Source: an uncultured Candidatus Saccharibacteria bacterium (lineage in GTDB: Bacteria > Patescibacteriota > Minisyncoccia > Phycocordibacterales > PCTT01). Taken from it: DNA of 64,000 nt. The translations under genes were made by a program, and so were the position numbers. Position 1 is the first letter of the stretch. Every line of letters starts with the position of its first letter. The stretch is from the NCBI GenBank assembly GCA_964566505.1, contig CAZMIM010000001.1:65140-129139 (forward strand), given 5' to 3'. Shown one piece after another: positions 1 to 34,830 of the stretch. The notes beneath the pieces are model-generated. The model made no database searches. It was not told the origin of the DNA and saw only the letters and a list, made by a program, of their open reading frames with translations.

Positions 1-1115
1 GAGCGCAAATCATTTGCATGATTTAACAGAACAAAGATGGGTGTGTTAATTGCAGCCCATGAATATGCACCTCCTCTCTTTCCTTTTCTTGGGAAAAAGT
101 CTATTTGTCCATTTTTTAAAAATTCTTCAAAAACATCCTTGTATACTCCCCCCATTTTCTCTAGTGCATTTGAGAAAATTTTGATTGAGTCTTCTGCAGA
201 AAATTTTCTCTTGATTTTCCCGACTGGCGCATGTCTATCAACATAATAAAAATCTTTCAAACCAGTCATTTTCTTTTTCAGGCGGAAAAACTTTTTACTT
301 GCCGAGTAGTTACCAGCCACAGCATCTCGCAAAGCAAATACAACATCTTTGTCCATTTCATCCCCCTTCATTCTTTCTTCCAGAAGATAAGTATAACCTC
401 GTAAATTATCTTCAATTTTTTTGTTTGTTATAAGTGCATTTATTTCACTTTCAGCAAAATCAGTGGTTTCTTCCAACAAATTATCAAGGAGCTCTCTAAT
501 CTTTCTTCTATCTTTTGTATTCAATTTTGTGAGTTTAGAAGACGCTTCTGTTAAAGAGAGCTTCTCCCCTTTAAAAGTTATAGTTTTTTTGTGTAGAGAT
601 TTTTCTCTTCCTTGTGTCCACATACTACTACTTACGCCAGACTTTAGATTGAGAATCTTTTCTTCATCTTCAGACAAAAGATATTTTGTGTTTTCAAAAA
701 AGTTCTCAAGTAGATATTTATACTCTTTTAGATTGGGGTCTTTTAAAAACTTTTTCTGATTTGCTTTTGTTACATCTTTAAAAGACACGTTATAAAAAGT
801 AATATTGTTATATGCCTTGCGAAGCCGCTCGGAAAACAAATTGATTTTTGATTTTATTTTTGTATTAGTGCTGTCCAAATCCTCACTAAAATGTAAATAC
901 ATCATTGGACGTGGAAGTTCAAAATGTTTTTCTCTCTCTTGCATTACCTTTTTTAGCTCTTTTGCGTCTGTAAGATACTTGCGATTGTTTTTATACTTTT
1001 TCGCAAAAGATGAATATGCACGTTCAATTTTTTGTACATCTTTTTCGAGTTGTGGGTCATCTATTGATTTATACAACCGCTTAAGATCCCATTCTGTTTT
1101 GTAACCTTTTTTCAT
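1..1115 (-). CDS. pepF: Oligoendopeptidase F (M3B family), N-terminal part. The gene continues past the window start, which is why it is absent from the ORF track.
   Basis: Manual minus-strand translation from ATG at 1115..1113 gives an uninterrupted frame to position 1: MKKGYKTEWDLKRLYKSIDDPQLEK...GKRGGAYSWAAINTPIFVLLNHANDL, a PepF-like N-terminus with the GKRxGAYS motif. The plus-strand ORFs listed in this region are low-complexity antisense. Confidence 0.8.
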   Translation of the reverse strand, partial: MKKGYKTEWDLKRLYKSIDDPQLEKDVQKIERAYSSFAKKYKNNRKYLTDAKELKKVMQEREKHFELPRPMMYLHFSEDLDSTNTKIKSKINLFSERLRKAYNNITFYNVSFKDVTKANQKKFLKDPNLKEYKYLLENFFENTKYLLSEDEEKILNLKSGVSSSMWTQGREKSLHKKTITFKGEKLSLTEASSKLTKLNTKDRRKIRELLDNLLEETTDFAESEINALITNKKIEDNLRGYTYLLEERMKGDEMDKDVVFALRDAVAGNYSASKKFFRLKKKMTGLKDFYYVDRHAPVGKIKRKFSAEDSIKIFSNALEKMGGVYKDVFEEFLKNGQIDFFPRKGKRGGAYSWAAINTPIFVLLNHANDLR

Positions 1116-1116
1116 C

Positions 1117-1722
1117 TTATTTTTTCTTATTTTTAAAACGTTTTAGTAATTCAAAATCTTTTTCTAATACTGGTAGTTGCTTGCGATTATATATCGCAAC
1201 TGCCGGATGGTACAGAGGTAGAATATACATATCACCCCAGGACTGCTCTGTCTTAAAGAGTCTTCCTCGTCCTTGGCTAATCGGTAGCACTTCATCTGAA
1301 AGTCCAAACTGCTCCATAATATACTCCATTGAGTACCTACCAAGTGTAGCGATAACTTTTGGTTGGATGATTTCTATTTGCCGGAGAAGAAATGGGGTAT
1401 AGAGAGCTATTTCTTCTTTGCTTGGATCACGATTGTCTTGTGGGCGGTCTTTTACAATATTTGTAATATAAACATCTTCTCTATCGAGCTTTATATGCGC
1501 AAGTAGCCCATCAAGTACTTTCCCTGAAGCCCCACAAAATGGCCTTCCTGTTTGTGCTTCGTTTTTACCTGGAGCCTCACCGATAAAAACAATATCTGCA
1601 TCTGTATTTCCCTCACCTACTACTGGCACATAATCGTTTGAAACACGATATTCATAAAGTGGCGACTCTTTGAGAGCCACCAATTCATCTTTTATTTTCT
1701 CCATTTTCTTATCCTTCGTCAT
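1117..1722 (-). CDS. Uracil-DNA glycosylase, family 4
   Basis: GEAPGKNEAQTGRPFCGASGKVLD and HPAV motifs typical of family 4 UDG; stop abuts the pepF start. Confidence 0.85.
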   Translation of the reverse strand: MTKDKKMEKIKDELVALKESPLYEYRVSNDYVPVVGEGNTDADIVFIGEAPGKNEAQTGRPFCGASGKVLDGLLAHIKLDREDVYITNIVKDRPQDNRDPSKEEIALYTPFLLRQIEIIQPKVIATLGRYSMEYIMEQFGLSDEVLPISQGRGRLFKTEQSWGDMYILPLYHPAVAIYNRKQLPVLEKDFELLKRFKNKKK

Positions 1723-2380
1723 TTTCTTCCTCTACAAGTGGAACAAATACAAACCCTGGAAACTCTTCTGTATCAAACTCGTCGTTTTCTTTCTTTGTAT
1801 ATTTCCAAATTGAGTTATCGACTGGTGCCACAAGCACTCCTCCAACTTTTAACTGTCGTAGAAGCTCTTCTGGAAGTTCGCTTGTCGCAGATGCTGATAC
1901 CAAAATCCTATCGTATGGTGCATGCTCGGCGTTACCGACAATATCCTCTGCTTCTGTAAGCGTAACATTTGGATATCCTGAAAGTCTTTCTTTTGCTATA
2001 TCTAATAGCTCTTTCACCCGCTCTACACCTACCACATCGCCACTATCGCCCACCATCACAGAAAGAAGGGCTGCAGTAAATCCAGAACCAGCACCCACAT
2101 CAAGAACATGGTGACCCTCTTCTACACCCAAAAGCTCTAACATAAATGCCACTGTCGTTGGCTGAGAAATAGTTTGCCCATGACCAATAGGAATAGCGTA
2201 GTCTTCGTATGCTTCAAATTTATAATCCTCTGTTAGAAAGTCTTTTCTGTCTACTTCTGTGAATGCTTTTTCTACAAGCGGATTTTTAAACACACCACTG
2301 TTGTTTTTCAGATGTGCGAGTAAATCCTCTCGTGTAGAGAGTGGTGTATTTAGAATGTCATTTAAATCTTTGTTTTCCAT
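1709..2380 (-). CDS. pcm: Protein-L-isoaspartate O-methyltransferase
   Basis: GQTISQPTTVAFMLELL and VLDVGAGSGF SAM-binding motifs. Confidence 0.9.
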   Translation of the reverse strand: MENKDLNDILNTPLSTREDLLAHLKNNSGVFKNPLVEKAFTEVDRKDFLTEDYKFEAYEDYAIPIGHGQTISQPTTVAFMLELLGVEEGHHVLDVGAGSGFTAALLSVMVGDSGDVVGVERVKELLDIAKERLSGYPNVTLTEAEDIVGNAEHAPYDRILVSASATSELPEELLRQLKVGGVLVAPVDNSIWKYTKKENDEFDTEEFPGFVFVPLVEEENDEG

Positions 2381-2384
2381 TTTT

Positions 2385-2639
2385 TTAAATAGTTACTCCT
2401 TCTTTTTGTAATAATTCCCGCTTCTTTCCTTTCAGTCCATTGTATCCGCCCACTTTGCCATCACTTCTAATAACCCTATGACATGGCACAGAGCCATCTT
2501 TGTTTTGCTTCATTATCATTCCCACTGCTCGCGCTGCCCCCGGAGAGCCTGCGCGCTTTGCAACTTCGCCATATGAAAGCGTTTCACCTTTTGGAATATT
2601 TTGTACAACGCTTATCACGCGCTCTTTAAATAGTGTCAT
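2385..2639 (-). CDS. ogt: Methylated-DNA-protein-cysteine methyltransferase, C-terminal DNA-binding/active-site domain only (84 aa)
   Basis: PCHRVIRSDG active-site motif. Start taken as ATG at 2639 (MTLFKERV...) because the 140-aa ORF extension overlaps the upstream nuclease gene, which stops at 2641. Confidence 0.8.
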   Translation of the reverse strand: MTLFKERVISVVQNIPKGETLSYGEVAKRAGSPGAARAVGMIMKQNKDGSVPCHRVIRSDGKVGGYNGLKGKKRELLQKEGVTI

Positions 2640-2640
2640 A

Positions 2641-3441
2641 TTAAAAAAGTGTGTCTGGGCTACTCTCTTTGCTCTCATTTGAAGAGTCTCCGTTTTCCTC
2701 AAGTACAACATCAACAGCCTTTCTGTATGTACAATACTCACAGTCCTCGCCTTGCTCTGGAGCACTTTCTTTATCAAGTGTCTCTTTTGCACGCAAAAGC
2801 GCGTCATCTACCCATGAGTCGTCTCCTTCATAAGGGATAACCTTCATACGAAACTCGAGCACTCCTGAAAATGTTTCTTTATCACGCCGTCCATTTGCAT
2901 ACACAAAATACCCTACCGGTGAGACTTTGAATCCGTTTTGTCGAAGTAGCCATTGGTACACCTCCATTTGTCTTTTATATCCATCCTGCCAATCTGCATC
3001 TAGTGTTACTTCCTCGTCTTTTGATGTTGCTTTGTAGTCCACAACGATAAGCTCTCCATCTGGGTTGACCCACACATCATCGACTGCACCTGAAACGGTA
3101 AGACCTGTTGGTTTGTGAAATGTATCAACGCCCTTGAAGTTGTCGCGCCAAATATCCATGTCCTTGTGGGCAAATGGCACTGCATCAATACCAAAGCGTG
3201 TCATAAGTGGATGCGGACTCTGTGCACGACGATGTGCATCAAACTCTTTTTTGAGAAGCTCATCAACTGCACTGTTGAGGTTGAATGGATACCCACGAGG
3301 TCGTGCAGTGCCTAGCTTGTTGTCGATATAAAAACAGCGCGGGCACTCGATAAAAAGATCGAGTTTTGAACGTGAAAGTCGCCAATTTGGGCCACCATAA
3401 TTCCACTTTTCATTTCGGTGCGGTTTATAAAACGAAGCCAT
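2641..3441 (-). CDS. PD-(D/E)XK nuclease with Fe-S cysteine cluster (Cas4-like / DUF83-type); no CRISPR nearby
   Basis: N-terminal CPRCFY, central VVDYKATS (D..K nuclease motif) and C-terminal CEYCTYRK cysteines match the Cas4/AddB 4Fe-4S nuclease architecture. Confidence 0.6.
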   Translation of the reverse strand: MASFYKPHRNEKWNYGGPNWRLSRSKLDLFIECPRCFYIDNKLGTARPRGYPFNLNSAVDELLKKEFDAHRRAQSPHPLMTRFGIDAVPFAHKDMDIWRDNFKGVDTFHKPTGLTVSGAVDDVWVNPDGELIVVDYKATSKDEEVTLDADWQDGYKRQMEVYQWLLRQNGFKVSPVGYFVYANGRRDKETFSGVLEFRMKVIPYEGDDSWVDDALLRAKETLDKESAPEQGEDCEYCTYRKAVDVVLEENGDSSNESKESSPDTLF

Positions 3442-3483
3442 AATACAGACATTGTACCACGCACCCTAATAACCCAAAACAAA

Positions 3484-3510
3484 GTTTGGGAAGGTCAGAC
3501 CTTCCCAAAC
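3484..3510. repeat. REP-like palindrome, family 1 (GTTTGGGA-N11-TCCCAAAC)
   Basis: gtttgggaaggtcagaccttcccaaac; perfect palindrome. Confidence 0.9.
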
Positions 3511-3511
3511 A

Positions 3512-3550
3512 AAAACCAACGGCTCATATTCAAAATGAGCCGTTGGTTTT
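3512..3550. terminator. Hairpin family 2 (AACGGCTCA-loop-TGAGCCGTT); bidirectional terminator-like
   Basis: aaaccaacggctcatattcaaaatgagccgttggtttt. Confidence 0.7.
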
Positions 3551-3588
3551 AACTAATCGCTAGTGGCTAGTGATTAAAACCTAGCAAA

Positions 3589-4242
3589 CTATCGAGGTGT
3601 TCCTGAGAATGTTTGGAATGTTGTCATTACCTCTACAGCATCTGCTGTTTGGTATGGTACATCTTGAGTAAAATCAAACTCTCGATCTCCGTTGTCTGAG
3701 TGAAGCTTTACATAGTAAAGACTATCAGCAACGGTTCCGCGAAGAAGCGGTACATCTACATCCGCAAATTCACCTGCGTCATAAATGCGTGCCCCAAGAA
3801 TGCTTCCTGGTACTCCCTCGTTATCTTCAAATACTACTACCCATGATGTTCTATCAAGTGATAGTGCTGAGACAGCTACTGTGTCTCCAAAATTTTGATC
3901 TTCTACAGCTAGAACTACTTCTGTTTCAAGTGTTACTGGCTCTGCAGGAGTATCTGAGTGAGTATCTGCCATGTACTCATCCTCCATCATTGTGTCTGCG
4001 TCTTCAAGCGCCTCATCATTTGAACCTGCGTTTCCTGTACCAAATACAAGAAATCCGATTCCAAATCCGATAAGAACACCTAAGATTGCAACAACAATCA
4101 TTTTCTTTGTGTCATTTTGTGTATTATTTTCCATATCTTCTTCAATATTTATATCAGCGAGAGATGGTTCGTGATTGTTGTTATACTCCTCCTGAAGTGA
4201 ATCAACATCCTCATCATTTCCATCAAATGGGATAATTTCCAT
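3589..4242 (-). CDS. Hypothetical single-pass membrane protein
   Basis: One hydrophobic helix (VVAILGVLIGFGIGFLVFG); acidic termini; no recognised domain. Confidence 0.5.
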   Translation of the reverse strand: MEIIPFDGNDEDVDSLQEEYNNNHEPSLADINIEEDMENNTQNDTKKMIVVAILGVLIGFGIGFLVFGTGNAGSNDEALEDADTMMEDEYMADTHSDTPAEPVTLETEVVLAVEDQNFGDTVAVSALSLDRTSWVVVFEDNEGVPGSILGARIYDAGEFADVDVPLLRGTVADSLYYVKLHSDNGDREFDFTQDVPYQTADAVEVMTTFQTFSGTPR

Positions 4243-4358
4243 ACAAAATCTGATAAAACTTATAATTTTCCTAACAATCTGCCCTTATTATAGACCAAAG
4301 TACAAAAAAAGTGCAGAAATGCACTGTAATGATGAAAATTTCAAGAAAAGTCAATAAA

Positions 4359-5210
4359 TTAAACCTCCTTTCCAGCTTTGTAGAGCTGTTCTATTTCTTT
4401 TATAACTTTTGCTTGGTCTTCGTCTGAGAGACCAATATGAGAAAGAACCTGAGGTTTTTCTTTTACAGTTTTACACAAAACAATATCCTTTCCTAAAAGC
4501 CTCTTTTTATTTTCTTGTGAAAGAGTAGTAAGACATGTAATAGGTTGAAGACCACTTTCTTCTATCATTTCTTGTAGATTACCTTTATCAGGATATGACC
4601 ACCCAATAAGTGTAATACCGGCACATTTACCATACGCAATGGCGTTGTGAGTAAATTTTGTATTAGTCATTAACCAAAATGAATGCTTCTTACCGCATGA
4701 CAATATATCCTCACATTTTCCAATCATAAGATCGTCATATCGTGCCTTTACATAAAGTGCCACTTTCATGTCAGACTTCACACCAGGCTTGTTATGAAAC
4801 TTTGCCTCAATGGTTATATAGTTTTCATCATCTTCTGCCAAAATATCTATCTCATGTGTCGCACACTTTCCTTTTAGAATTTTTCCAATCTGTGTTGTAT
4901 AGCCACGTTCAGTAAGAACCCTTTCCATAAACTGCTCAAAAGGGAAACCACTTGGCCCCAAATCCATGATAGCCCTTCTTAGTGAATAGCTAGCTGCAAC
5001 TCCTGCCCTTAGATTGCTTAATTGTGCAAAAGCGGCTTTATATATTTCTTGTGTAGTATCTCCGTCAGATATCTCTTGATTCACAAAAGAAAGCACATCT
5101 GCGACCTCTGTTTCATTCGCACCTGATCTTTTTAAAGAACGCATGAGCTTCTCTTCTCGAAATGGCTCCTGCGTTCCGTCTGCTTTTGTGATTATCACCT
5201 GACGAGACAT
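4359..5210 (-). CDS. ATP-cone domain protein fused to an Mrr-like (PD-(D/E)XK) restriction-endonuclease catalytic domain
   Basis: N-terminal ATP-cone-like segment (ITKADGTQEPFREEKLMRSLKRSG), followed by GY...HEIDILAEDDENYITIEAKFH, which resembles the Mrr_cat D/E-K core. Confidence 0.55.
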   Translation of the reverse strand: MSRQVIITKADGTQEPFREEKLMRSLKRSGANETEVADVLSFVNQEISDGDTTQEIYKAAFAQLSNLRAGVAASYSLRRAIMDLGPSGFPFEQFMERVLTERGYTTQIGKILKGKCATHEIDILAEDDENYITIEAKFHNKPGVKSDMKVALYVKARYDDLMIGKCEDILSCGKKHSFWLMTNTKFTHNAIAYGKCAGITLIGWSYPDKGNLQEMIEESGLQPITCLTTLSQENKKRLLGKDIVLCKTVKEKPQVLSHIGLSDEDQAKVIKEIEQLYKAGKEV

Positions 5211-5213
5211 GTG

Positions 5214-5711
5214 TTATTGATCGTTCTCTGTTTCTTCTACGACCATCTCATCAACGTCTGTATTTCCATCTGCCGGCATTCCCATTGATGCGTCTCCATT
5301 AGACTCTACAATAATCAAATTGATTTTCTTTCCGTTATAAGTCGCATCTACTGTAGCTTGCTCACTAGCACCTACAAGAATACGAAATTCCTTAGGAGTA
5401 ATCACTTGTGCACACATTACATCTTCTGCTGGAGGTGTTACCACAAACGAAAGAGTGATTTGCTCTGGATATGACTCACGAACAAGAGCTTCTGTATAAA
5501 GCTCGTAACATGGGTTTGGAAATTCAATAACCCCTGAATATTCGTGCAAATTATCAGTATATACAAAATCAGCAACAATCTCTGCTGGCATGTATGACAT
5601 TTTGTCGTGATCTTTTTCGGCTTTATCTTCAAAACTCGTATCTGCAACAAGCATTCCGAAAATCACAACCAATACAATTATTAAAACATTTGTGAGTAAA
5701 GATGTTTTCAT
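5214..5711 (-). CDS. Hypothetical exported protein
   Basis: Signal-peptide-like N-terminus when started at MKTSLLTNVLIIVLVVIFG; no domain recognised. Confidence 0.45.
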   Translation of the reverse strand: MKTSLLTNVLIIVLVVIFGMLVADTSFEDKAEKDHDKMSYMPAEIVADFVYTDNLHEYSGVIEFPNPCYELYTEALVRESYPEQITLSFVVTPPAEDVMCAQVITPKEFRILVGASEQATVDATYNGKKINLIIVESNGDASMGMPADGNTDVDEMVVEETENDQ

Positions 5712-5760
5712 ACGTCCTCTCTTAAATAATAAAACCATCTTTAGTATATCACAGGATATA

Positions 5761-6816
5761 TTATGGAAGTATTTCCTCTATAATTCCCCCACCTACACAC
5801 TCATTATCTCGATATAACACCAGAGATTGCCCTACAGCAACAGCTTTTTGAGGTTCATTGAAAGTCGCTGTATTGCCATCAAGCTTGCATGGGAAAAGTG
5901 TTTGTCTATATCGAAGACGCGCCTGATATCCACCATCAGCATTGTCTTTGCGCATAACCATATCGCAAAGCTTTACAGACGATGCGTTGAATACCGGGTT
6001 GTCCTTTCCCTCTTTGTCAGACACGGTGATGGTGTTTTGCTCTATATCTTTTGAAACCACAAAATACGGCTTGTCATTTGGTGTCTTTTTTGTAATTCGG
6101 AAACCTCTTCGCTCACCAATGGTAAAAAATAATGCGCCGTCATGCTCACCAATCACAACACCCTCTTCATTCAAAACATTACCTTTTTCCTCTTTTATAT
6201 AGTGCGTTAGAAAATCCTTCATAGAAATATCTCCAAGAAAACATATTCCCTGACTATCTTTTTTAGAAGCAGTAGAAAGTCCTTCTTTTTCTGCAATGGC
6301 TCTTACTTCGCTCTTTTGGAGATGACCTACTGGAAAGAGAACGTGTGAAAGCTGTTCTTTTGTGAGTGTCCAAAGAAAATACGACTGATCTTTTCCTTCA
6401 TCTGCCCCCGCAACAAGAGCGTCGCCTATATTTTTTGCATAGTGGCCTGTAGCAACATAGTCTGCGCCATTTAGAAGTGCCCACTTTAGAAAACCTCCAA
6501 ACTTTACATATCTATTACACATCACATCTGGATTTGGTGTTCTACCCTTTTTATACTCAGAAATCATATAGTCTGCGACTTCCTCTTTATACTCTTTACT
6601 CAAATCAAGCTCATGAAATGGAATATCTAGATGTGCACATACACGCATTGCATCACGACGCTCTTCTTTCCAGTTACACTCCAAAAACTCCGGGTACCAC
6701 ACCTTTATAAAAACTCCTTCTACGTCGTAGCCCGCTTCTTTTAGTAGATGTGCAGACACAGAAGAATCTACACCACCCGAGAGACCTACATATACTTTTT
6801 TATTCGTGTTACTCAT
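5761..6816 (-). CDS. mnmA: tRNA-specific 2-thiouridylase
   Basis: PP-loop SGGVDSSV, conserved Cys and overall MnmA length. Confidence 0.9.
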   Translation of the reverse strand: MSNTNKKVYVGLSGGVDSSVSAHLLKEAGYDVEGVFIKVWYPEFLECNWKEERRDAMRVCAHLDIPFHELDLSKEYKEEVADYMISEYKKGRTPNPDVMCNRYVKFGGFLKWALLNGADYVATGHYAKNIGDALVAGADEGKDQSYFLWTLTKEQLSHVLFPVGHLQKSEVRAIAEKEGLSTASKKDSQGICFLGDISMKDFLTHYIKEEKGNVLNEEGVVIGEHDGALFFTIGERRGFRITKKTPNDKPYFVVSKDIEQNTITVSDKEGKDNPVFNASSVKLCDMVMRKDNADGGYQARLRYRQTLFPCKLDGNTATFNEPQKAVAVGQSLVLYRDNECVGGGIIEEILP

Positions 6817-6879
6817 AAAAAATAAATTCTAAGCACTAATTTCTAATAACTAAACTGTTTAGAGTTTAGATATTAGCAT

Positions 6880-7554
6880 TTAGGATTTAAGAAAATCATT
6901 CTTTGATTTTCGTTTATTCCATTCTTCTATTTCTTTGTGGTTACCTGAAAGTAATACTTTTGGAACTCTGTATTTCTTTTTCTTATACTCAAATACTTCT
7001 GGTCTGGTATATAGCTCGCTTGATGCATTTCTTTTCTCTTCTTGAGAATCACTGTTTCCAAGAACGCCATCAACGTGTCGAGACACCGCATCAAGTACCA
7101 CCATTGCTGGAAGCTCGCCTCCAGTAAGCACATAAGGGCCGATAGACACCTCTTCTGCATTGGTGATTTTCTTTACTCGTGCATCGATACCTTCATATCG
7201 TCCTGAAATCATTACAATATGATCGTACTTCGAAGCAAGCTCTCGTGCATACGCATTACTAAACTGCTTACCGCTCGGTGAAAAAATGAGTGTTTTTACA
7301 TTCTTTTTCTTTCCAACTGCTTTTTGGAATGCCTTTACGATAGGTTCTACCTGCATCACCATTCCAGGCCCTCCACCATATGGCTTGTCATCGACCTGCT
7401 TGTGCTTGTCGATAGAGTAATCCCGTGGATTATAGAAATTTATAGAAATCTTTTTGTTCTTTATTGCGCGAGCAATAATAGAATCGCCCAAATACGAATC
7501 AAACATTTTGGGAAAGAGTGTGATGATATGAAATTGTTTTTTCTTGTTTTTCAT
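6880..7554 (-). CDS. trmD: tRNA (guanine37-N1)-methyltransferase
   Basis: GGGPGMVM, ISGRYEGIDARV and SIGPYVLTGGELPAMV motifs; start chosen at MKNKKKQFHIITLFP. Confidence 0.9.
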   Translation of the reverse strand: MKNKKKQFHIITLFPKMFDSYLGDSIIARAIKNKKISINFYNPRDYSIDKHKQVDDKPYGGGPGMVMQVEPIVKAFQKAVGKKKNVKTLIFSPSGKQFSNAYARELASKYDHIVMISGRYEGIDARVKKITNAEEVSIGPYVLTGGELPAMVVLDAVSRHVDGVLGNSDSQEEKRNASSELYTRPEVFEYKKKKYRVPKVLLSGNHKEIEEWNKRKSKNDFLKS

Positions 7555-7598
7555 ATGAAAAAGTCGTGGCAAAATAATACCACGACTTTTTGAATTTG

Positions 7599-7817
7599 TC
7601 ATCGAAAGAGATCCAGCGGATAGCCTGGTAAAGACAGTATCTCAAGGGCTATGCCCAGCAAAGCAATCCAAACCCCTCTTCTTTGAAGTTTTTGTTCGCG
7701 CAACTTGCTGATATACAACTTTTTTCTTTTTACGTTAGCATAAACCAACAAAGATACTCCACTGAATAAAACTAAGACAGAAAATACTGGTATAACAAAG
7801 GGAAGAAGTGTCTGCAT
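7599..7817 (-). CDS. Small hypothetical membrane protein (73 aa)
   Basis: Start at ATG 7817 (MQTLLPFVIPVF...) with AGGAG RBS; the longer ORF upstream would run through the 7861-7887 terminator hairpin. Confidence 0.4.
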   Translation of the reverse strand: MQTLLPFVIPVFSVLVLFSGVSLLVYANVKRKKLYISKLREQKLQRRGVWIALLGIALEILSLPGYPLDLFR

Positions 7818-7860
7818 TTGTATCTCCTTTTTAGTGAACGTTTTATTTAATATAGCACAA

Positions 7861-7887
7861 AAGCCACGACGCGCGCGTCGTGGCTTT
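7861..7887 (-). terminator. GC-rich perfect hairpin
   Basis: aagccacgacgcgcgcgtcgtggcttt. Confidence 0.7.
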
Positions 7888-7903
7888 GATTTTAGTGTGG
7901 ACT

Positions 7904-8149
7904 TCAGAAGAAAATATATAGCGAGCAAAGCATTGCAAAGCCAGTAATGGTTGCCCGACGTGAGAAGCGCAAAACCCTTGTTTCTCTTTGAAGCTCAGAC
8001 CGCAGCCTTGCAGCCTGTGCTCCTCGTACTTCCAAACGAATCGCTCCCTCGAGCTCTTTGCAATTTCCTGACCACGCAATCCACATTACACCTCCTGCCA
8101 CAAGACCTATGGGGCCAAAAATAACAAACAAAGTGCTGAGAAGTTCCAT
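7904..8149 (-). CDS. Small hypothetical membrane protein (81 aa)
   Basis: AGAGGTG RBS before ATG 8149; one TM helix; followed by the strong hairpin at 7861-7887. Confidence 0.4.
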   Translation of the reverse strand: MELLSTLFVIFGPIGLVAGGVMWIAWSGNCKELEGAIRLEVRGAQAARLRSELQRETRVLRFSRRATITGFAMLCSLYIFF

Positions 8150-8250
8150 GATTCACCTCTTTTTGTATTTGTACAATCAAAAACATATTACCACACAAAA
8201 ACCACCTCGTAAATAAAGGTGGTTTTTGTTTAAGTTGTTTAAGGTTGTGC

Positions 8251-8595
8251 TTACGCGTCTCCCTTTAGCTCTTCCATTGCTTCGTCTACTGCAGAAGCTG
8301 GATCTGCTGCCTCAACTGCTGGTGCAGATGGTCGCTCGCTTGAGCGATATCCTCCTGCTGGCTCGTTGATTTTAAGATTCACACGCGCTTGGTTTTTCAT
8401 ACCAACAACTCGAAGTAGTGTTCGAATTGCCTTTGCTGTATTACCATTTCGTCCAATAATCTTACCCATGTCTTCTTTGTTAACATCGAGGGTAATGAGT
8501 ACTCCCATTTCATCAACAGTACGATCAACCTTTACGTCTTCTGGGTGATCTACCAATGACTTCACAACATACTCAAGAAAATCTCTATCTTCCAT
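8251..8595 (-). CDS. KH-domain RNA-binding protein (YlqC/KhpA-like)
   Basis: GKIIGRNGNTAKAIRTLL KH motif; lies downstream of rpsP as in conserved rpsP operons. Confidence 0.8.
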   Translation of the reverse strand: MEDRDFLEYVVKSLVDHPEDVKVDRTVDEMGVLITLDVNKEDMGKIIGRNGNTAKAIRTLLRVVGMKNQARVNLKINEPAGGYRSSERPSAPAVEAADPASAVDEAMEELKGDA

Positions 8596-8761
8596 GTTGA
8601 ATCAAGTATTAGTTTCTAACGTACAAACACGAAAAACCCGTGCTAGTAATGGTGATTATACAACAGATACGGCGAATCTCAAGGCAGCCTCGTGGAAAAC
8701 AAAAAGAGTGGCAAAACTTAATTTTGTAATTTTTAAATAACAAAATAATTCATAATAATTT

Positions 8762-8789
8762 CTTATTGTACGATGTATCGTACAATAAG
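8762..8789. promoter_or_regulatory. Perfect 12-bp-arm inverted repeat in the rpsP-KH intergenic spacer
   Basis: cttattgtacgaTGTAtcgtacaataag. Confidence 0.3.
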
Positions 8790-8858
8790 AACAATTTATT
8801 ATTTTTGTGTATTTTATTATTTTTTAGCAATAAAAAACGACCCGAGTGGGTCGTTTGT

Positions 8859-9350
8859 TTATTCTGCTGATTCTTCAGTTGGAGTTTCTCCAGTAGCCTC
8901 TTCTACTGGCGCCTCCTCAGCTGGTGTTTCCTCTACAGGATCTTCTTCTGCTGGCGCTTCCTCGGCAGGAGTTTCTTCTGAAGGTGTTTCCTCAGCCAGA
9001 CTCTCGTCCTGAGTAGCCTCTGGAGCTTCTGCTGGAGTCTCTTCTGCCGGTGTTTCCTCTGGCTTCTCGCTTACAATAGGAGATTTCTTTGGTAGAACAT
9101 TCTTGGCCTTTCCTTCGATGATTCCCTCTTTTACCAAAAGGTTGTGAACTGTATCAGAAAGCTGTGCACCTACTGACATCCAGTGCTTTACTCTATCACC
9201 CTTAATCTCACGCGTATCTGTTCGCGCATCATATGAACCAAGGTTCTCAATATATTTACCGCTCTTAGGACCACGATGTTTTTCTGTAACCACCACTCGA
9301 TATGATGGATCGTGCTTTCGCCCTACTCGCTTTAATCTAATTTTTAACAT
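8859..9350 (-). CDS. rpsP: 30S ribosomal protein S16 with a long acidic Glu/Thr/Pro/Ala-rich repetitive C-terminal extension
   Basis: MLKIRLKRVGRKHDPSYRVVV is the canonical S16 N-terminus; the C-terminus carries EETPAEE-type repeats encoded by an imperfect tandem DNA repeat. Confidence 0.9.
   Translation of the reverse strand: MLKIRLKRVGRKHDPSYRVVVTEKHRGPKSGKYIENLGSYDARTDTREIKGDRVKHWMSVGAQLSDTVHNLLVKEGIIEGKAKNVLPKKSPIVSEKPEETPAEETPAEAPEATQDESLAEETPSEETPAEEAPAEEDPVEETPAEEAPVEEATGETPTEESAE
8870..9012. repeat. Imperfect tandem repeat (period ~45 bp) encoding the acidic tail of S16
   Basis: Repeating units ctggcgcctcctcagctggtgtttcctc... / ctggcgcttcctcggcaggagtttcttc... Confidence 0.6.
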
Positions 9351-9419
9351 GGCGCACATAATAACAGAATAAAGATTACTACGCAATAGCACTCTCTTCT
9401 GTTACAATAGACAAACTTT

Positions 9420-11354
9420 ATGAGAGAAACTCCACATACTGGAAGCACAATAGAAGGCAAGCTACAGACCACGTCACGAGGCGTGGGCTATCTTTCTTAT
9501 GACGAAGAGGCAAAAGATATAGAAATCCCAGAAGACAAGACGTACACAGCACTTCACGGAGACACTGTCGTGGTGCGTATTACACACAGTGACAGTGAGC
9601 GTGTGTATGGAGAAGTAATAAAAGTATTAGAGCGTGGTGCAAAACTTTTCTCTGGAACACTTGAGCAAGAGGCTGGGCACTTCTTTCTAATGACAGACAA
9701 CCATCGAATTCACCGGGATATTCTTGTGGCACCAGATGAGCGACTAAAAGAAGGATACAAAGCAGTGGTACGCTTCCTTTCTTGGAACACTACACACGAT
9801 GACCCTAAAGGAGAGCTTGTGTCTATTTTGGGTAGAAAGGGAGAACACGAAGCAGAAATGCAATCAATTATCGTGGGGCGTGGGATTGTTTACGACTTCC
9901 CTGTTGAAGTAGAAAAAGAAGCAAAAGAAATCAAAGCAAACGAAGCAAAAATCTTTCAAGATGCAGAAAACGACCCTCGCCGAAAAGATATCCGAGACAT
10001 TCCTACATTCACCATCGACCCAGACAGTGCAAAAGACTTTGATGATGCTCTTTCTATTCGAACACTACAAAATGGAAACCTGGAGATTGGTATTCATATT
10101 GCTGATGTATCTCACTATGTACAAGAAGGAAGTGCGCTAGACCAAGAAGCACAATCACGAGGATTTTCTACATACCTAGTGGATAGAACCATCCCGATGC
10201 TTCCTGAAGTACTTTCAAACGACCTTTGTAGTCTCAACCCGCATGTCGACCGACTCGCCTTTTCTGCAATATTTGAAATGACTCATAGTGGACAAGTAGA
10301 GAGCTCTTGGTATGGAAAAACAATCATTCACTCAGACAAACGGTTTACATACGAAAATGCACAAGAACAGATTGACGCTGGAGATGGTGAATACTCAGAG
10401 CCACTAATAACTCTAAATGGAATAGCAAAAACACTGCGAGCACGAAGATTTTCAAAAGGTGCAGTGGACTTCTCTGATGACGAAGTAAAGTTTGAGCTCA
10501 ATGACAAGGGCGAAGTAATGCGTGTGTATAAAAAAGAGCGGCTTGATACTCACAAACTTGTGGAAGAGTTTATGCTTCTTGCTAACCGCTCTGTAGCAGA
10601 GAAAATAGAAAAACTGTGTGAAAACTCAGGCCACGATCACCTTTTTGTATACAGAATCCACGACCTACCAGATAGAGAAAAACTTTCCGAGCTTGGCACA
10701 TTTCTTAAAGCTCTTGGATACCGATTTGAGGTGCCAAATGAAGTAAGCGGAACAGACCTAAACAAACTACTAGAGCAAGTGAAGGACAAACCAGAGGAAG
10801 GTTTGGTAAATACAGCGCTTATTCGCTCTATGGCAAAGGCTGTATACTCTACCGCTAACAATGGACACTTTGGGCTGGCATTTGAGCACTACACACACTT
10901 CACATCGCCTATCCGTAGATACCCTGACCTTATTGTGCACCGACTTCTATTTGCACATCTTCATAACGAGAATATTACTCAAAGAGAGATAGACCTCTAT
11001 GAAAGCATTATCTCTAAATCAACTGACAAAGAGATTAATATTATGCAAGCAGAGCGTGAGAGTATTAAATACAAGCAAGTAGAGTTCCTAAAAGATCGTG
11101 TGGGTGAGACATTTGATGTATTAGTAACAGGAGTTTCAGACTTTGGACTCTTTGTGGAAGAGAAAGAAACACGAGCACAGGGACTCATTGCTATTAGAAA
11201 TCTAGGAAATGATTTCTTTGAGCTTCGAGAGAAACAATTTGCAATAGTTGGTAAAAGCAGTGGTCAAAAGTTTACACTCGGGCAAACACTCAAAGCAAAG
11301 CTCACTGGAGCAGACCTAGACAAGCGTCAGCTCGACTTCCGTCTCCAAAACTAA
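9420..11354 (+). CDS. rnr: Ribonuclease R (RNase II/R family, with C-terminal S1 domain)
   Basis: RNB-domain motifs (DPDSAKDFDDALS, HFTSPIRRYPDL) and a C-terminal S1-like region. Confidence 0.9.
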   Translation: MRETPHTGSTIEGKLQTTSRGVGYLSYDEEAKDIEIPEDKTYTALHGDTVVVRITHSDSERVYGEVIKVLERGAKLFSGTLEQEAGHFFLMTDNHRIHRDILVAPDERLKEGYKAVVRFLSWNTTHDDPKGELVSILGRKGEHEAEMQSIIVGRGIVYDFPVEVEKEAKEIKANEAKIFQDAENDPRRKDIRDIPTFTIDPDSAKDFDDALSIRTLQNGNLEIGIHIADVSHYVQEGSALDQEAQSRGFSTYLVDRTIPMLPEVLSNDLCSLNPHVDRLAFSAIFEMTHSGQVESSWYGKTIIHSDKRFTYENAQEQIDAGDGEYSEPLITLNGIAKTLRARRFSKGAVDFSDDEVKFELNDKGEVMRVYKKERLDTHKLVEEFMLLANRSVAEKIEKLCENSGHDHLFVYRIHDLPDREKLSELGTFLKALGYRFEVPNEVSGTDLNKLLEQVKDKPEEGLVNTALIRSMAKAVYSTANNGHFGLAFEHYTHFTSPIRRYPDLIVHRLLFAHLHNENITQREIDLYESIISKSTDKEINIMQAERESIKYKQVEFLKDRVGETFDVLVTGVSDFGLFVEEKETRAQGLIAIRNLGNDFFELREKQFAIVGKSSGQKFTLGQTLKAKLTGADLDKRQLDFRLQN

Positions 11355-11423: not shown

Positions 11424-12146
11424 CTATTCTTCTCGAAGTGGTGCGTTTTTGATTATTTCAAGCGCCTCCTCGTCTGTGTCTATGATGGTGTATAGATCTA
11501 TATCAGACTCATCAATAGTTTTGTAATCTTTTGCGAGTGTCTCTCTTATAAACCCATCAAGCCGTCCCCAATACTCTTTTCCTACAAGAATAATAGGTAC
11601 GCGAGGAATCTTTCTAGTTTGAACAAGTGTGAGAATCTCAAAGAACTCGTCCATTGTTCCAAACCCTCCTGGGAAATAGACATATGCCTCTGCTGAAAAT
11701 GTGAGAGTTACTTTTCGTGAAAAGAAATAATAGAAAGACATAGAGTCCTCTACATATGGATTCACTACTTGTTCAAAAGGAAGCTCAATATTGAGTCCAA
11801 GTGAATTACCTGGCCCATCCGCCTCTTTTGCTCCCCTGTTTGCACCTTCCATAATTCCAGGCCCTCCTCCTGTGATAACTGTGTATCCGAGCTCATCTAC
11901 AATCTTATAAGCAAGGTCTCGTGCTCTTTGGTAGTGCTCGTTATCTTCAGGAAATCGTGCTGAACCAAAAATAGTTACTGAACGAGGATGGTTTTTAATA
12001 AACTCAAATCCATCATGAAATTCTCTTGTAATGCGCCCCACGCGCTCATCGATTTCTTTTTGAACATCATCACGCTTTAGCGGTTCTGTATGAAGCTTTA
12101 CTGAAGGAACATTTATTATTTTTTTGTTTGGATCGATTGGTGTCAT
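11424..12146 (-). CDS. LOG family protein (cytokinin riboside 5'-monophosphate phosphoribohydrolase-like, TIGR00730)
   Basis: ITGGGPGIMEGANRGA and PGGFGTMDE motifs. Confidence 0.85.
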   Translation of the reverse strand: MTPIDPNKKIINVPSVKLHTEPLKRDDVQKEIDERVGRITREFHDGFEFIKNHPRSVTIFGSARFPEDNEHYQRARDLAYKIVDELGYTVITGGGPGIMEGANRGAKEADGPGNSLGLNIELPFEQVVNPYVEDSMSFYYFFSRKVTLTFSAEAYVYFPGGFGTMDEFFEILTLVQTRKIPRVPIILVGKEYWGRLDGFIRETLAKDYKTIDESDIDLYTIIDTDEEALEIIKNAPLREE

Positions 12147-12463: not shown

Positions 12464-12613
12464 ATGTTTAAAAAATGAGGAGGGTATTTAGAAAATCCGC
12501 ACAAACTTTTAGCATACAAACAATCTACCAAATTTGAGATAATTCGCACAAACTTTTACTACGTAAAACTTAGGCAGATAAATAAAATATAGTCGCCTTG
12601 CTCCTTATTTTAT

Positions 12614-16124: not shown

Positions 16125-17030
16125 TTATTCCTTTTCTGGATGCAGGAGTAAGTCAGCTGCCTTTGTCACAATTGGGAAGATATCTTCATAAAAATTAAGA
16201 TGCACAATCTCCTCGAGTGGGAACCATCGAGAATCATCGAGTCCCGATTTGTCCTCAGTACTCTTTAGCGGGCTATATGGTGCTTCTGCAAGGAAGTACC
16301 GCACCTGCTTTCTGATTTTTCCTTTCTCTGGATGAGAAGAAATATATTCATTGTCTCCAAGAAGTGGACCTATAGTAATAGGTAGACCCATCTCCTCATC
16401 TATCTCTCGGATAGCTGTCTCTTCGAAACTTTCGTTTCCTTCTACCTTTCCTTTTGATAGTGTCCAGTGGCCAAAAATGTCATGAACAAATGCCATGTAT
16501 ATATTTTCTTCGTGACGTGCATATACCACCGCACCTGCAAGTTTTACTATTTCCATCTCTTCGTATGGAATATCTTTTTTCTTTGCGCTTTTTTCATCTT
16601 TCCCCGGCTCTCCTATCTCTCGATATACAGAACCTAGCACTCCGTTTACAAACTTACCGCTTGATTCTCCTCCAAAATTCTTTGCGAGCTCTATGGCCTC
16701 GTTGATAGCCACCTTTGGTGGAACATCTTTTCTGTCACCATACAAAAGCTCATATAGACCTATTCTAAGAATATTTCGATCTACATTTGCAATTTTTTCT
16801 ATTGGCCAATCTGGTGCGGCCTTGGAGATTACCTCATCGAGTTTGTCTTTTTTATCTATCACTCCTGTAAGGAGGCTATTCATGTACGCATCATCAGCAG
16901 TACCAGGAGCAAATTCTTCCTGATTCCGCTTTAATATTTCTTCAAGTGGTTCGTGAGAATCATTTTCTCGCAAATCCCACTCAAAGAGTGTTTGCATTAT
17001 TATTGAACGTGATAAATGTCTTCCTGCCAT
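16125..17030 (-). CDS. nusB: NusB (N-utilisation substance B) N-terminal domain fused to a C-terminal NUDIX hydrolase domain
   Basis: NusB core (SRSIIMQTLFEWDL...NVDRNILRIGLYELLY...PPKVAINEAIELAKNFGGESSGKFVNGVLG), then a Nudix box GHWTLSKGKVEGNESFEETAIREIDEEMGL. Confidence 0.75.
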   Translation of the reverse strand: MAGRHLSRSIIMQTLFEWDLRENDSHEPLEEILKRNQEEFAPGTADDAYMNSLLTGVIDKKDKLDEVISKAAPDWPIEKIANVDRNILRIGLYELLYGDRKDVPPKVAINEAIELAKNFGGESSGKFVNGVLGSVYREIGEPGKDEKSAKKKDIPYEEMEIVKLAGAVVYARHEENIYMAFVHDIFGHWTLSKGKVEGNESFEETAIREIDEEMGLPITIGPLLGDNEYISSHPEKGKIRKQVRYFLAEAPYSPLKSTEDKSGLDDSRWFPLEEIVHLNFYEDIFPIVTKAADLLLHPEKE

Positions 17031-24344: not shown

Positions 24345-25403
24345 TTAACCGTTGTCCGACTGAAGCTGCTCTAGAGCAAACTGAGCGATACTCAAATTTT
24401 TTCGAATATCTTTCAGGTTTAACTCCGTGCGCTTTAGATCAAGCTCAACTTCCTTGTAACGACTACTAGCATGCTTCTCTTCTGTTTCCAGATTCAGTAT
24501 GTATTGCTTCAAATCCGCAATACTTGCACTGGAAAAGAATGGAAAAGGTCTGCCAGCATCTTCTGTAACCCTTTCTTGATCTTCGGTCTTTCTCTGAAAA
24601 TCATCTGATGAATCAGGAACGTCTGCAGGTCTCCATTTTTCAGGAGCCATAACCCAAATTTTTTGTCCTGACGTTCTGCCAGACAAAGAAATTTGACCAC
24701 CGCCAGCAAGACGTTTTTTGCTTTTGGAAACAACGGCTCTCATTGAAGCTCGAACACCTGAGATTATTTTCTTTTTCTGCAAATGTTCCAAGGCTAATGG
24801 AGTGATGTTGTAGGAATTTCCTACAAACCAAAAATACTCATCGCCTTTACGTTTCCATCGTTTTGTATCATCTTCTGAAAAAGACTCACAGGCCTTATCC
24901 CTAAGAAAATCTAACAACTCAGAATCGAGAGTATTCAAATTTACTTTGTTGTTAGATCCTTCAGGCTTATTACGTCTAAAGACTTCAGCTTGTTCGGCGA
25001 TATACTCAAGCAAATCAAAAGATTCACCAAGAACTTTTGACATGTCTTCATTTATTGCTTGAGCAAATCTGTTCTCTGATGGATTCAGAAGAATAACAAG
25101 CTTAAGTTTACAGGCAAAATTGGAGACCTCCTTATACTGTGAATCATTTTGGTCGGCGAAACCTCTGTTGGCTGAAGTTCGTTCACCATACACATGGTAT
25201 TGCAAAAATGGCCAAAGATGTTTCAAGTTGCCCCAGGGAGACCCGCCTCTTCCGCGTTTTGGTATAAGAGTGCTAGAAAGCTTGTCACAAAGCTTTTTTC
25301 CAGCATTTTCCCAGCTACCTCGAACTCCCTTTGTTCCATACAGCTCATCAAGTAATTCCCGATGCTCTGCAAGCAAAGAAGGTTTTGTGGGTATAATAGA
25401 CAT
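24345..25403 (-). CDS. Hypothetical protein (352 aa), no recognised domain
   Basis: Convergent with thrS and shares its terminator at 24296-24330; charged, with coiled-coil C-terminus. Confidence 0.45.
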   Translation of the reverse strand: MSIIPTKPSLLAEHRELLDELYGTKGVRGSWENAGKKLCDKLSSTLIPKRGRGGSPWGNLKHLWPFLQYHVYGERTSANRGFADQNDSQYKEVSNFACKLKLVILLNPSENRFAQAINEDMSKVLGESFDLLEYIAEQAEVFRRNKPEGSNNKVNLNTLDSELLDFLRDKACESFSEDDTKRWKRKGDEYFWFVGNSYNITPLALEHLQKKKIISGVRASMRAVVSKSKKRLAGGGQISLSGRTSGQKIWVMAPEKWRPADVPDSSDDFQRKTEDQERVTEDAGRPFPFFSSASIADLKQYILNLETEEKHASSRYKEVELDLKRTELNLKDIRKNLSIAQFALEQLQSDNG

Positions 25404-26230: not shown

Positions 26231-26695
26231 TTAGTTAAGTAGAAAGATAGAGAAGTTGAGCACACTCGCAAATGTAATCCACAATAGATAAGGTATCAAA
26301 AGATACATGCTTGGCTTGTAGATGCGCCAAATCTGCTCCATAAGAACCACAAGTGTTGCAATCATAAGAATGATTATCATGAATGCTCCAAGGATGTTGT
26401 GCATTCCAAAAAATACAATAGACCAGAGCGCATTTAAAACCATGTGGAAGATAAATAGGTTGCGTGTAGTTTTGTATCGTTTGAATCCCTTATTCCACAA
26501 GAAAAAGAATGAGAGCCCTATTAGGAAATAGAGAATATTCCAAACAGGTCCAAAGACCCAGTTTGGTGGAGAAAACCATGGACGCACCAGAGTTTCGTAC
26601 CAAGTATCTATGTTTGGAAATGTAGCAAGAGAACCTATGGCTCCTGCTACATATGCAAATACCAATGAAAATAAAAATTTGAGACCATTAGACAT
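26231..26695 (-). CDS. tspO: TspO/MBR family tryptophan-rich sensory protein
   Basis: Five-TM Trp-rich pattern (WYETLVRPWFSPPNWVFGPVWNILY); start uncertain (MSNGLKF used). Confidence 0.75.
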   Translation of the reverse strand: MSNGLKFLFSLVFAYVAGAIGSLATFPNIDTWYETLVRPWFSPPNWVFGPVWNILYFLIGLSFFFLWNKGFKRYKTTRNLFIFHMVLNALWSIVFFGMHNILGAFMIIILMIATLVVLMEQIWRIYKPSMYLLIPYLLWITFASVLNFSIFLLN

Positions 26696-26765
26696 ATTCT
26701 CTATTGTATCGACTCGCATACAAAAACACCACCGCAAAAGGTGGTGTTTTTGTGAATTATTATAA

Positions 26766-27864: not shown

Positions 27865-28305
27865 TTATTTAAATGGAAGAATGTCTTTAAACAAATCTGT
27901 ATTTCGTGAAAGTCGAGATACTCCACATGAATCAAGTCCTGAAGAATTTTCTAAAGTCGGGTCTGCACCGACAGACAGAAGAAATTTTACAACCTCTACT
28001 CTGCCTTCATAGATTGCAAACATTAAAGCTGTCCATCCATTATAGCCTTGAATATTTACATCGGCACCAAGAGACAATAACTCTTCTGCAACACTCTGGT
28101 GAATTGCCATGAGCCAAGCAATCCAACCAAAACGCTCAGCAAGCTCTATGTCCACATAGTAGTGATACATAAGTCCTTCATAAATTTCTTCAAGTGTTGC
28201 CTCTCTGTTTTTGAAATACTGTTTAAATTTTGATTGTCCACCCTTACAGGCAGAATAATCTTCCAAGAAATCGCCTGTTATTTTCATGATGGTTATAAGG
28301 TTCAA
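27865..28305 (-). CDS. Ankyrin-repeat protein
   Basis: GADVNIQGYNGWTALMFAIYEGRVEVVKFLLSVGADP ankyrin repeats. Confidence 0.7.
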   Translation of the reverse strand: MNLITIMKITGDFLEDYSACKGGQSKFKQYFKNREATLEEIYEGLMYHYYVDIELAERFGWIAWLMAIHQSVAEELLSLGADVNIQGYNGWTALMFAIYEGRVEVVKFLLSVGADPTLENSSGLDSCGVSRLSRNTDLFKDILPFK

Positions 28306-31459: not shown

Positions 31460-31525
31460 ATATACCTATGATAGTATCCTACATTAGACCCTTGCTCCAG
31501 TTCAAATAACGAAAAAGAGGAAAAC

Positions 31526-31933: not shown

Positions 31934-31953
31934 CATCCACCCTCTCTTTCCTT

Positions 31954-31986
31954 GGCGGTGCGTATTTTTATACGCACCGCCTTTTT
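31954..31986. terminator. Bidirectional terminator between the 31526 gene and uvrA
   Basis: ggcggtgcgtatttttatacgcaccgcc + TTTTT. Confidence 0.8.
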
Positions 31987-31987
31987 G

Positions 31988-34591: not shown

Positions 34592-34592
34592 A

Positions 34593-34790: not shown

Positions 34791-34806
34791 CCCGTTAGTA
34801 AAAAAT

Positions 34807-34830
34807 TAGTTTGATTAATTAAACAAACTA
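34807..34830. promoter_or_regulatory. Palindromic candidate operator upstream of the zinc-ribbon-ORF/uvrA operon
   Basis: TAGTTTG-attaattaaa-CAAACTA, 17 bp upstream of the small ORF start. Confidence 0.3.

Follow-up and report, generated by a model that had tools for sequence, protein, structure and literature searches.

The only process that ATP-cones are known to control is nucleotide synthesis, in ribonucleotide reductase (RNR) and in its repressor NrdR: on binding ATP or dATP, these proteins change their oligomeric state and with it their activity. AF1548, a structural-genomics protein of Archaeoglobus fulgidus, has been predicted to be a nuclease with residues D38, E51 and K53 (PMC1821046). 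Solo-Cas4 proteins, encoded without CRISPR-cas, are over-represented in Parcubacteria and other small genomes and are vertically inherited, and whether they serve repair or defence was left open (Hudaiberdiev et al. 2017, PMC5704561). We analyzed a 64-kb stretch of bacterial DNA (contig CAZMIM010000001.1; "the window" throughout) in which six co-directional open reading frames (ORFs) lie on the minus strand at exactly 1117-5210, as a first-pass annotation of the sequence had listed them. The most upstream of the six joins an ATP-cone to an AF1548-type PD-(D/E)XK nuclease fold, and the others include a solo Cas4-like gene followed by three genes for predicted damage-repair enzymes.

We read this region as a housekeeping block whose ATP-cone protein would be a nucleotide-gated nuclease and not a restriction enzyme, a reading that we judge evenly balanced between right and wrong. 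The protein would be a metal-dependent endonuclease acting on DNA or RNA, with a helical C-terminal domain that would bind the nucleic acid; by analogy with NrdR and RNR, ATP or dATP in the cone would set its assembly into an active oligomer, and cutting would thereby be tied to nucleotide or energy status. Its partner would be the adjacent 5'-3' exonuclease, Cas4-like in Paceibacteria and of the beta-CASP type in Bacteroidota and Chlamydiota, and the purpose would be repair processing, or else controlled turnover and salvage of nucleic acid.

A widespread family of ATP-cone proteins with a nuclease fold

The ATP-cone protein (283 aa; 4359..5210, minus strand) consists of an ATP-cone (residues ~5-88; 4947..5198), a PD-(D/E)XK core with catalytic residues D122, E135 and K137 (residues ~90-205; 4596..4943) and an AF1548-like helical C-terminal domain that resembles a helix-hairpin-helix (residues ~210-281; 4368..4583). 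The cone named in the first-pass annotation is confirmed by profile search (PF03477, 27.9 bits against a cutoff of 25.8, residues 7-81); many homologues carry the same precomputed call, and the four-helix cone with its beta-hairpin lid is present. The nuclease half had been described as Mrr-type, which holds only as a marginal Pfam match (Mrr_cat PF04471, 23.3 bits against a cutoff of 21, E 7.2e-05, graded "weak" or "faint" in many homologues). Its closest relative, and the only solved one, is AF1548 (PDB 1Y88; E 2.7e-28, residues 94-275), and the match covers both the nuclease and the C-terminal domain, by sequence and by fold; the AF1548-like_C model itself scores 18.3 bits, below its cutoff of 23.9. 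Profile search found neither an Mrr_N winged helix nor any other modified-DNA reader, and the N-terminus is occupied by the cone. An AlphaFold2 model of the protein has high confidence (mean pLDDT 91.3, pTM 0.84). Structural neighbours of the protein include AspBHI, MspJI, Can2/Card1 and NucC, as well as chains of Pol X and RAD51 paralogues over 60-80 aligned residues, which would correspond to the C-terminal domain.

Residue conservation was assessed in an alignment of 388 diverse family members. D122, E135 and K137, the counterparts of AF1548 D38, E51 and K53, are invariant in all 388, as are R157 and D160; in the cone, K9 is kept in 386 members, K21 in 377 and F17 in 372. Profile alignment places positions 7-75 on residues 51-127 of E. 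coli NrdR with weak similarity (E 0.09), and it brings I7, K9, E15, P16, F17, K21 and L22 into register with NrdR V51, K53, E59, P60, F61, K65 and L66, which cover and hold adenine (10.1101/2025.03.28.645925). The invariant catalytic set argues that the protein may be an active enzyme, and the conserved adenine pocket that the cone may be a working nucleotide sensor. A four-cysteine metal site (C116, C196, C226 and C246) was also considered and dropped, because C226 (291/388) and C246 (339/388) vary and AF1548 has an isoleucine in place of C226.

The likeness to NrdR could also be taken to mean that the protein is an NrdR-like transcription regulator, whose nuclease fold would simply bind DNA while the cone set the binding. 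A cone coupled to a DNA-binding domain is indeed the logic of NrdR, and NrdR is the best match to this cone among those compared by structure. We nonetheless find this scarcely probable: the D-ExK triad is preserved without exception, together with other acidic and basic residues, as expected for an active enzyme, and no nrd genes were recognised among recurrent neighbour clusters, although no systematic search was made for them.

Far from being unusual, as the first-pass annotation had it, the fusion defines a large, uniform family of about 280 aa with thousands of members, all uncharacterised. Searches returned 2,874 homologues with the window protein, of which the best 120 share 45-56% identity and the top ones come from Campbellbacteria and Paceibacteria bins, and 7,522 with a Bacteroidota member. 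An exhaustive profile search gave 605 clusters at 50% identity (E <= 1e-30); in the best 150 of these, nearly all proteins are 270-300 aa long (five are longer, with a maximum of 403 aa) and match almost the whole profile. With one genome taken per species, at least 593 species genomes carry a confirmed member. The family occurs in Patescibacteria, in Bacteroidota (Cyclobacterium, Pontibacter, Sporocytophaga, Chitinophaga and Flavobacterium) and on one plasmid of Criblamydia (Chlamydiota), with 42-56% identity among the matches listed, Patescibacteria and Bacteroidota included. Databases name its members variously "ATP cone domain-containing protein", "restriction endonuclease", "ATPase" or "Holliday junction resolvase".

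Some of these observations would suit a Type IV (Mrr-like) restriction enzyme, or another anti-phage nuclease triggered by changes in the nucleotide pool during infection: Mrr_cat exceeds its cutoff, AspBHI, MspJI, Can2/Card1 and NucC are structural neighbours, NCBI labels some members restriction endonucleases, and nucleotide-sensing defence nucleases do exist. However, the protein matched no PADLOC defence model and none of 50,697 phage records, and it appeared on just 2 of 72,556 plasmids (those of Pontibacter and Criblamydia). A PHROGs search gave generic matches only (RNR cones, exonucleases and methyltransferases). Its flanks are housekeeping genes, and the absence of a modified-DNA reader sets it further apart from restriction enzymes. 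The uniform architecture, the good conservation, the lack of phage and defence matches, and synteny with mnmA (below) fit a vertically inherited cellular gene and not a restriction or anti-phage gene, and we therefore consider a defence role very unlikely. The broader proposal that the six genes form an anti-phage module is likewise unsupported: identities of 45-73% between proteins from many lineages are not typical of defence genes, and no DNA methyltransferase domain, a partner suggested for the nuclease, was found among the window ORFs that gave Pfam matches.

Gene neighbourhoods in relatives

We compared 80 Paceibacteria-type loci from species genomes, 43 of which have at least 4 kb of downstream flank (locus labels beginning with L are ours). 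The backbone order is conserved: a sigma-like gene, DUF8128, YceG, mnmA, the ATP-cone gene, a variable slot, alaS and, further on, infA, rpsM, rpsK, rpsD and rpoA. In 57 of the 80 loci the gene immediately upstream, with the same orientation, is mnmA, which mostly overlaps the ATP-cone gene or lies within ~50 nt of it. The variable slot holds UDG4 (family-4 uracil-DNA glycosylase) in 26 loci, a Cas4-like gene in 21, MGMT in 18, DUF7282 in 14 and Pcm (protein-L-isoaspartate O-methyltransferase) in 5; MgtC, a YfbR-like 5'-deoxynucleotidase, M3 and M16 peptidases, UMP kinase and a second uracil-DNA glycosylase (UDG)-superfamily gene also occur there. The deoxynucleotidase (a cluster of 8 members) comes right after the ATP-cone gene in 6 loci. 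A functional link between the ATP-cone gene and mnmA was considered and set aside as lineage-specific gene order, because the pairing is absent outside Patescibacteria.

At least one of the Cas4-like, MGMT or UDG4 genes lies downstream in 31 of the 43 loci with sufficient flank. MGMT immediately follows the Cas4-like gene in 16 of 21 loci by start-to-start offsets, which we preferred to counting from ORF ends (9/21), a measure distorted by over-long ORF starts. Three further loci, reached from Cas4-like homologues on long contigs, all have mnmA, an overlapping ATP-cone gene, a 21-nt gap and the Cas4-like gene; MGMT comes directly next in two of them and after one opposite-strand gene in the third, and all three have a UDG-superfamily gene in the vicinity, although just one of these genes is an immediate neighbour with the same orientation. 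In one of the three loci, L084 from a Paceibacteria relative, an ExoIII-type (Exo_endo_phos) gene at 7105-7866 follows MGMT, and UDG-superfamily, endonuclease and exonuclease genes then lie near each other. The recurrence of the arrangement exceeds chance, and much of it is shared ancestry.

These neighbours raise the possibility that the ATP-cone protein is a repair endonuclease specific for a lesion or a DNA structure, much as NucS/EndoMS, Vsr or Hjc are, that would act in one pathway with UDG4, MGMT, the ExoIII-type enzyme and the Cas4-like nuclease, its cone permitting incision only when deoxynucleoside triphosphates (dNTPs) are at hand for resynthesis. The repair genes downstream in most loci, the 21-nt spacing to the Cas4-like gene with MGMT behind it, the ExoIII and UDG-superfamily genes and the "Holliday junction resolvase" names in some JGI records all point this way. 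On the other side, the Bacteroidota and Chlamydiota loci that we examined have no repair context, NucS and Hjc resemble the protein only in their common fold (12-19% identity), and UvrABC and RNase HII are already encoded in the window. We regard so specific a repair role as unlikely.

Outside Patescibacteria, the ATP-cone gene can head an operon of four genes, followed by a beta-CASP hydrolase, a "thymidine phosphorylase family" protein and a phosphoribosyl pyrophosphate (PRPP) synthetase (ribose-phosphate pyrophosphokinase). This operon was found in two phyla: on the Pontibacter plasmid (L081 1972-6597), on the Criblamydia plasmid (L082 8995-13602), where the genes overlap by 1-4 nt, and in Bacteroidota chromosomal loci L026, L068 and L070. 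The phosphorylase scores 589 bits on an archaeal-type model and 480 bits on AMP phosphorylase, whose cutoff is 535. The beta-CASP partner is of an RNA-specific type, with an RMMBL domain and an aCPSF1-like sequence. In Bradyrhizobium, the trio of beta-CASP, PRPP synthetase and phosphorylase (bll3115-3117) is induced under low oxygen (PMC6515984).

Such an operon suggests a narrower version of the nucleotide-gated reading, in which the protein would serve salvage or catabolism. At low ATP or dNTPs it would cut RNA, or imported or damaged DNA, and the 5'-3' exonuclease would reduce the pieces to mononucleotides, to be recycled through the AMP-phosphorylase-like enzyme and PRPP synthetase or through a 5'-deoxynucleotidase; the repair genes of Paceibacteria would then be neighbours by descent only. 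The tight four-gene operon in Chlamydiota and Bacteroidota, the phosphorylase scores, the low-oxygen induction of the Bradyrhizobium trio, the YfbR-like gene in six Paceibacteria loci and the presence of DprA in the window are in keeping with this idea, as is the fact that Patescibacteria mostly lack de novo nucleotide synthesis. Yet the operon is present in just about half of the sampled Bacteroidota loci, the Bradyrhizobium trio as described consists of the other three genes of the operon, and the closest recurrent partners in Paceibacteria are repair enzymes. In this exclusive form, we consider salvage doubtful.

Several observations weigh against our reading of a nucleotide-gated nuclease in a housekeeping block, repair-linked or otherwise. 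E15 of the adenine pocket is kept in just 228 of the 388 aligned members and is V or A in ~40%, and lineages may therefore differ in how they bind nucleotide. Peptidases, MgtC and UMP kinase also occur in the slot that follows the ATP-cone gene, and the full gene set of the window recurs in only 1 of the 43 loci (L037). Gene order in Patescibacteria is strongly kept by descent, and adjacency to repair genes may therefore say nothing about function. Because the beta-CASP partner is of an RNA-specific type, the substrate could be RNA and not DNA. Other Bacteroidota loci often have P-type ATPases, metal efflux genes, Usp, PPK2, AAA_28 kinases or unrelated genes as neighbours, and the beta-CASP operon was found in 0 of 4 further Bacteroidota loci examined. 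The hairpin predicted after the ATP-cone gene is the weaker of two such sites in the region (z -0.55 for the whole spacer). Finally, our literature searches found no functional study of the family, AF1548 included.

Taking the nucleotide-gated reading one step further, we tentatively propose that ATP-cones control a third class of proteins besides RNR and NrdR, the ATP-cone/AF1548 family. Its members would be housekeeping endonucleases switched by the balance of ATP and dATP; each would work with the 5'-3' exonuclease encoded beside it, Cas4-like in the candidate phyla radiation (CPR) and beta-CASP in Bacteroidota and Chlamydiota, to govern how much DNA or RNA is degraded to nucleotides. This proposal is a serious possibility, if on balance an improbable one. 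CPR bacteria (Patescibacteria) are thought to be unable to make nucleotides de novo, and for them such an enzyme would act as a central valve on the flow from scavenged or damaged nucleic acid into the dNTP pool. Because orthologues exist in cultivable Bacteroidota (Pontibacter, Cyclobacterium and Sporocytophaga), the question is directly testable.

Gene layout, the repair genes and their chromosomal setting

The first-pass annotation treated the six genes as one ensemble with near-zero spacing, which is accurate for part of the region. The Cas4-like (2641..3441), MGMT (2385..2639), Pcm (1709..2380) and UDG4 (1117..1722) genes are separated by 1, 4 and -14 nt, the Pcm and UDG4 genes overlapping. 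By contrast, spacers of 147 nt and 116 nt flank the gene for a predicted DUF7282 membrane protein (3589..4242), on its Cas4-like and ATP-cone sides respectively. The 147-nt spacer contains a tandem pair of strong hairpins with T runs behind them (3484..3550, minus strand; -55.9 kcal/mol, z -6.95, 0 of 200 shuffles equally stable; terminator scan entry 3510-3484), an unusually strong insulation between co-directional neighbours. The site just 3' of the ATP-cone gene is a terminator-like hairpin with a T7 run (4310..4325). Given these predicted terminators and the spacing, the region would split into three transcription units and not form one operon: a unit ending in mnmA, a membrane protein and the ATP-cone nuclease; DUF7282 alone; and Cas4-like–MGMT–Pcm–UDG4, a tightly packed putative damage-repair operon. 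The idea of an ensemble keeps its repair theme, which recurs in most relatives, and loses its unity, both in the predicted units and in the rarity of the full set. An Rfam search of 1-10000 returned sub-threshold chance matches only.

The Cas4-like protein has the RecB-type motifs (D, D/ExK and QxxxY) and the Cas4/Dna2/Exo5 fold, and is predicted to trim 5' single-stranded ends or flaps. Its assignment to PDDEXK_1 is solid (PF12705, 62.6 bits), and the N- and C-terminal cysteines that had suggested an Fe-S nuclease are present; the Cas4 models, however, stay below cutoff (PF01930, 20.3 against 22.7; TIGR00372, 33.4 against 65), and PADLOC gave weak Cas4 matches. The cysteines, invariant like the RecB motifs, are arranged 2+2 (C33-x2-C36 and C234-x2-C237), and not as in the 1+3 pattern of Cas4 Fe-S proteins (C...CxxC...C). 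Conservation exceeds that of the ATP-cone nuclease, with at least 8,000 homologues, the best 120 of them at 61-73% identity. The protein ends in a basic tail of ~20 residues (2641-2700, minus strand), modelled with low confidence and closing in ...PDTLF; about 93 of the 120 homologues likewise end in a basic linker and (Q/E/D)(S/T)LF, optionally followed by a single further residue. Sliding-clamp-binding motifs read QL[SD]LF. The (S/T)LF tail resembles such a beta-clamp-binding motif, and the nuclease may be tethered to the sliding clamp. In relatives its neighbours are the ATP-cone gene, MGMT and UDG, and not cas1 or cas2.

Profile searches bore out the remaining enzyme calls, all above cutoff. 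UDG4, which would excise uracil from DNA, scores 117.6 bits on PF03167 and 177.6 on TIGR00758 (cutoff 125.3), matches PDB 4zbx at E 8.8e-47 and has the GEAPG and HPA motifs. The four positions that hold [4Fe-4S] cysteines in the family are L, S, D and Y in the window, and L/F, S, D and Y in all 24 Paceibacteria homologues examined (among them L001, L002, L020 and L037), which suggests a cluster-free clade of family-4 UDG. MGMT would move alkyl groups from O6-guanine onto the cysteine of its PCHRV motif; it scores 100 bits on PF01035 and 80.8 on TIGR00589 (cutoff 46.4), and it aligns, PCHRV included, to residues 74-153 of M. tuberculosis Ogt (PDB 4wxd). It has no N-terminal domain and is 84 aa long from an internal Met, its relatives being 83-100 aa. 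Since the upstream gene ends at 2641 and a 140-aa ORF would overlap the Cas4-like gene, the start must lie at or after 2639 in the reading direction. Pcm, which would mend isoaspartyl damage in proteins, scores 189.6 bits on PF01135 and 174.7 on TIGR00080 (cutoff 159.05); a PADLOC match to the methyltransferase fold of mad2 was judged uninformative. The DUF7282 protein (PF23951, 47.2 bits) has a hydrophobic segment at about residues 48-68, as judged by eye, and its gene, lying between terminators, is probably an unrelated passenger.

The co-directional run continues upstream of the six genes with a 174-aa predicted membrane protein of no family (5214..5738), whose stop codon lies 3 nt before the ATP-cone start and whose homologues occupy this position in just 2 of the 80 loci, and then with mnmA, encoding tRNA 2-thiouridine synthase (5761..6816, minus strand; NF001138, 400 bits), trmD, a KH-domain gene and rpsP. 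The downstream neighbour is an M3 oligoendopeptidase gene that runs off the start of the window. We scanned most remaining window ORFs with Pfam (E <= 1e-5), and found RNase R, an SMC_N/RecN-like protein, RNase III, a NusB-NUDIX fusion, RNase HII, dnaE, tRNA synthetases, uvrC, uvrA, uvrB, tgt, dnaX, Dus, DprA and TopA. ORFs left unscanned or giving no match at this cutoff are those at 24345-25403, 59733-61223, 61216-62271 and 62223-63998 (290-591 aa) and others mostly shorter than ~150 aa. In agreement with the first-pass annotation, the ORFs that gave Pfam matches include no cas gene, and a repeat scan detected no CRISPR-like array in the 64 kb. The region belongs to the conserved chromosomal backbone of a small-genome bacterium of the Paceibacteria type (Patescibacteria/CPR), and is not a mobile or defence island.

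Some other features of the window, all on the minus strand where a strand applies, deserve mention. The fusion of a NusB domain with a NUDIX hydrolase domain is a 301-aa ORF at 16125-17030. uvrC, uvrA and uvrB lie close together at 30248-37034, followed by tgt; the uvrC product is just 403 aa long and has UVR and RNase H-like endonuclease domains, with no N-terminal GIY-YIG match at E <= 1e-5. A 903-aa protein at 47509-50220 combines LCAT-like lipase/esterase and lamin-tail domains in a stretch of low local GC content (0.357-0.360). An ankyrin-repeat protein (27865-28305) and a TspO/MBR family protein (26231-26737) are both uncommon in small-genome bacteria. Near the cluster, a LOG/SLOG-type "lysine decarboxylase-like" protein at 11424-12146 is another candidate for nucleotide salvage, the LOG/SLOG family including nucleotide N-ribohydrolases. 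Intergenic DNA upstream of the SMC_N/RecN-like gene carries two copies of a 25-nt direct repeat (12487-12558; 88% identical, 47 nt apart), a possible operator.

Comparison with known systems

Taken one by one, the repair genes are ordinary, and the ATP-cone nuclease is what stands out, as a widespread uncharacterised enzyme class. Judged from its domains, what appears new is the combination of ATP-cone allostery with a PD-(D/E)XK nuclease, and a cone-bearing nuclease would extend to nucleic-acid cleavage an allosteric logic so far tied to nucleotide synthesis. With the cones of NrdR and of class I and III RNRs it has in common the adenine-pocket pattern V/I-x-K...E-P-F...K-L; the output domain differs, being a PD-(D/E)XK nuclease in place of the zinc ribbon of NrdR or the reductase of RNR. 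With AF1548 (Mrr_cat and AF1548-like_C) it shares the D-ExK residues; AF1548, at 199 aa, has no ATP-cone. With Mrr and Type IV restriction enzymes it shares the catalytic fold and the marginal Mrr_cat match, whereas Mrr has an N-terminal Mrr_N reader and is sporadic, and the window protein is without that reader, conserved, vertically inherited and found outside defence contexts.

The repair genes differ from their closest described relatives in ways of their own. MGMT retains the C-terminal PCHRV domain of Ogt/MGMT and is missing the N-terminal one, and unlike alkyltransferase-like (Atl) proteins it keeps the active-site cysteine. UDG4 shares profile and motifs with the family-4 enzymes of S. 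tokodaii, T. thermophilus and T. maritima, with its cluster cysteines replaced; a family-4 UDG that would lack the Fe-S cluster bears on what the cluster is for. Like the solo-Cas4 proteins of CPR bacteria and DPANN archaea, the Cas4-like protein is a RecB-type PD-(D/E)XK nuclease with four cysteines and no CRISPR-cas, and it departs from them in its sub-cutoff Cas4 scores, its 2+2 cysteines, its conserved (S/T)LF tail and its frequent pairing with MGMT. The CPR solo-Cas4, for which repair and defence were both left open in 2017, thus gains a genomic context, a conserved operon that it shares with MGMT and UDG. That operon, together with the possible clamp-binding tail, points to repair rather than defence.

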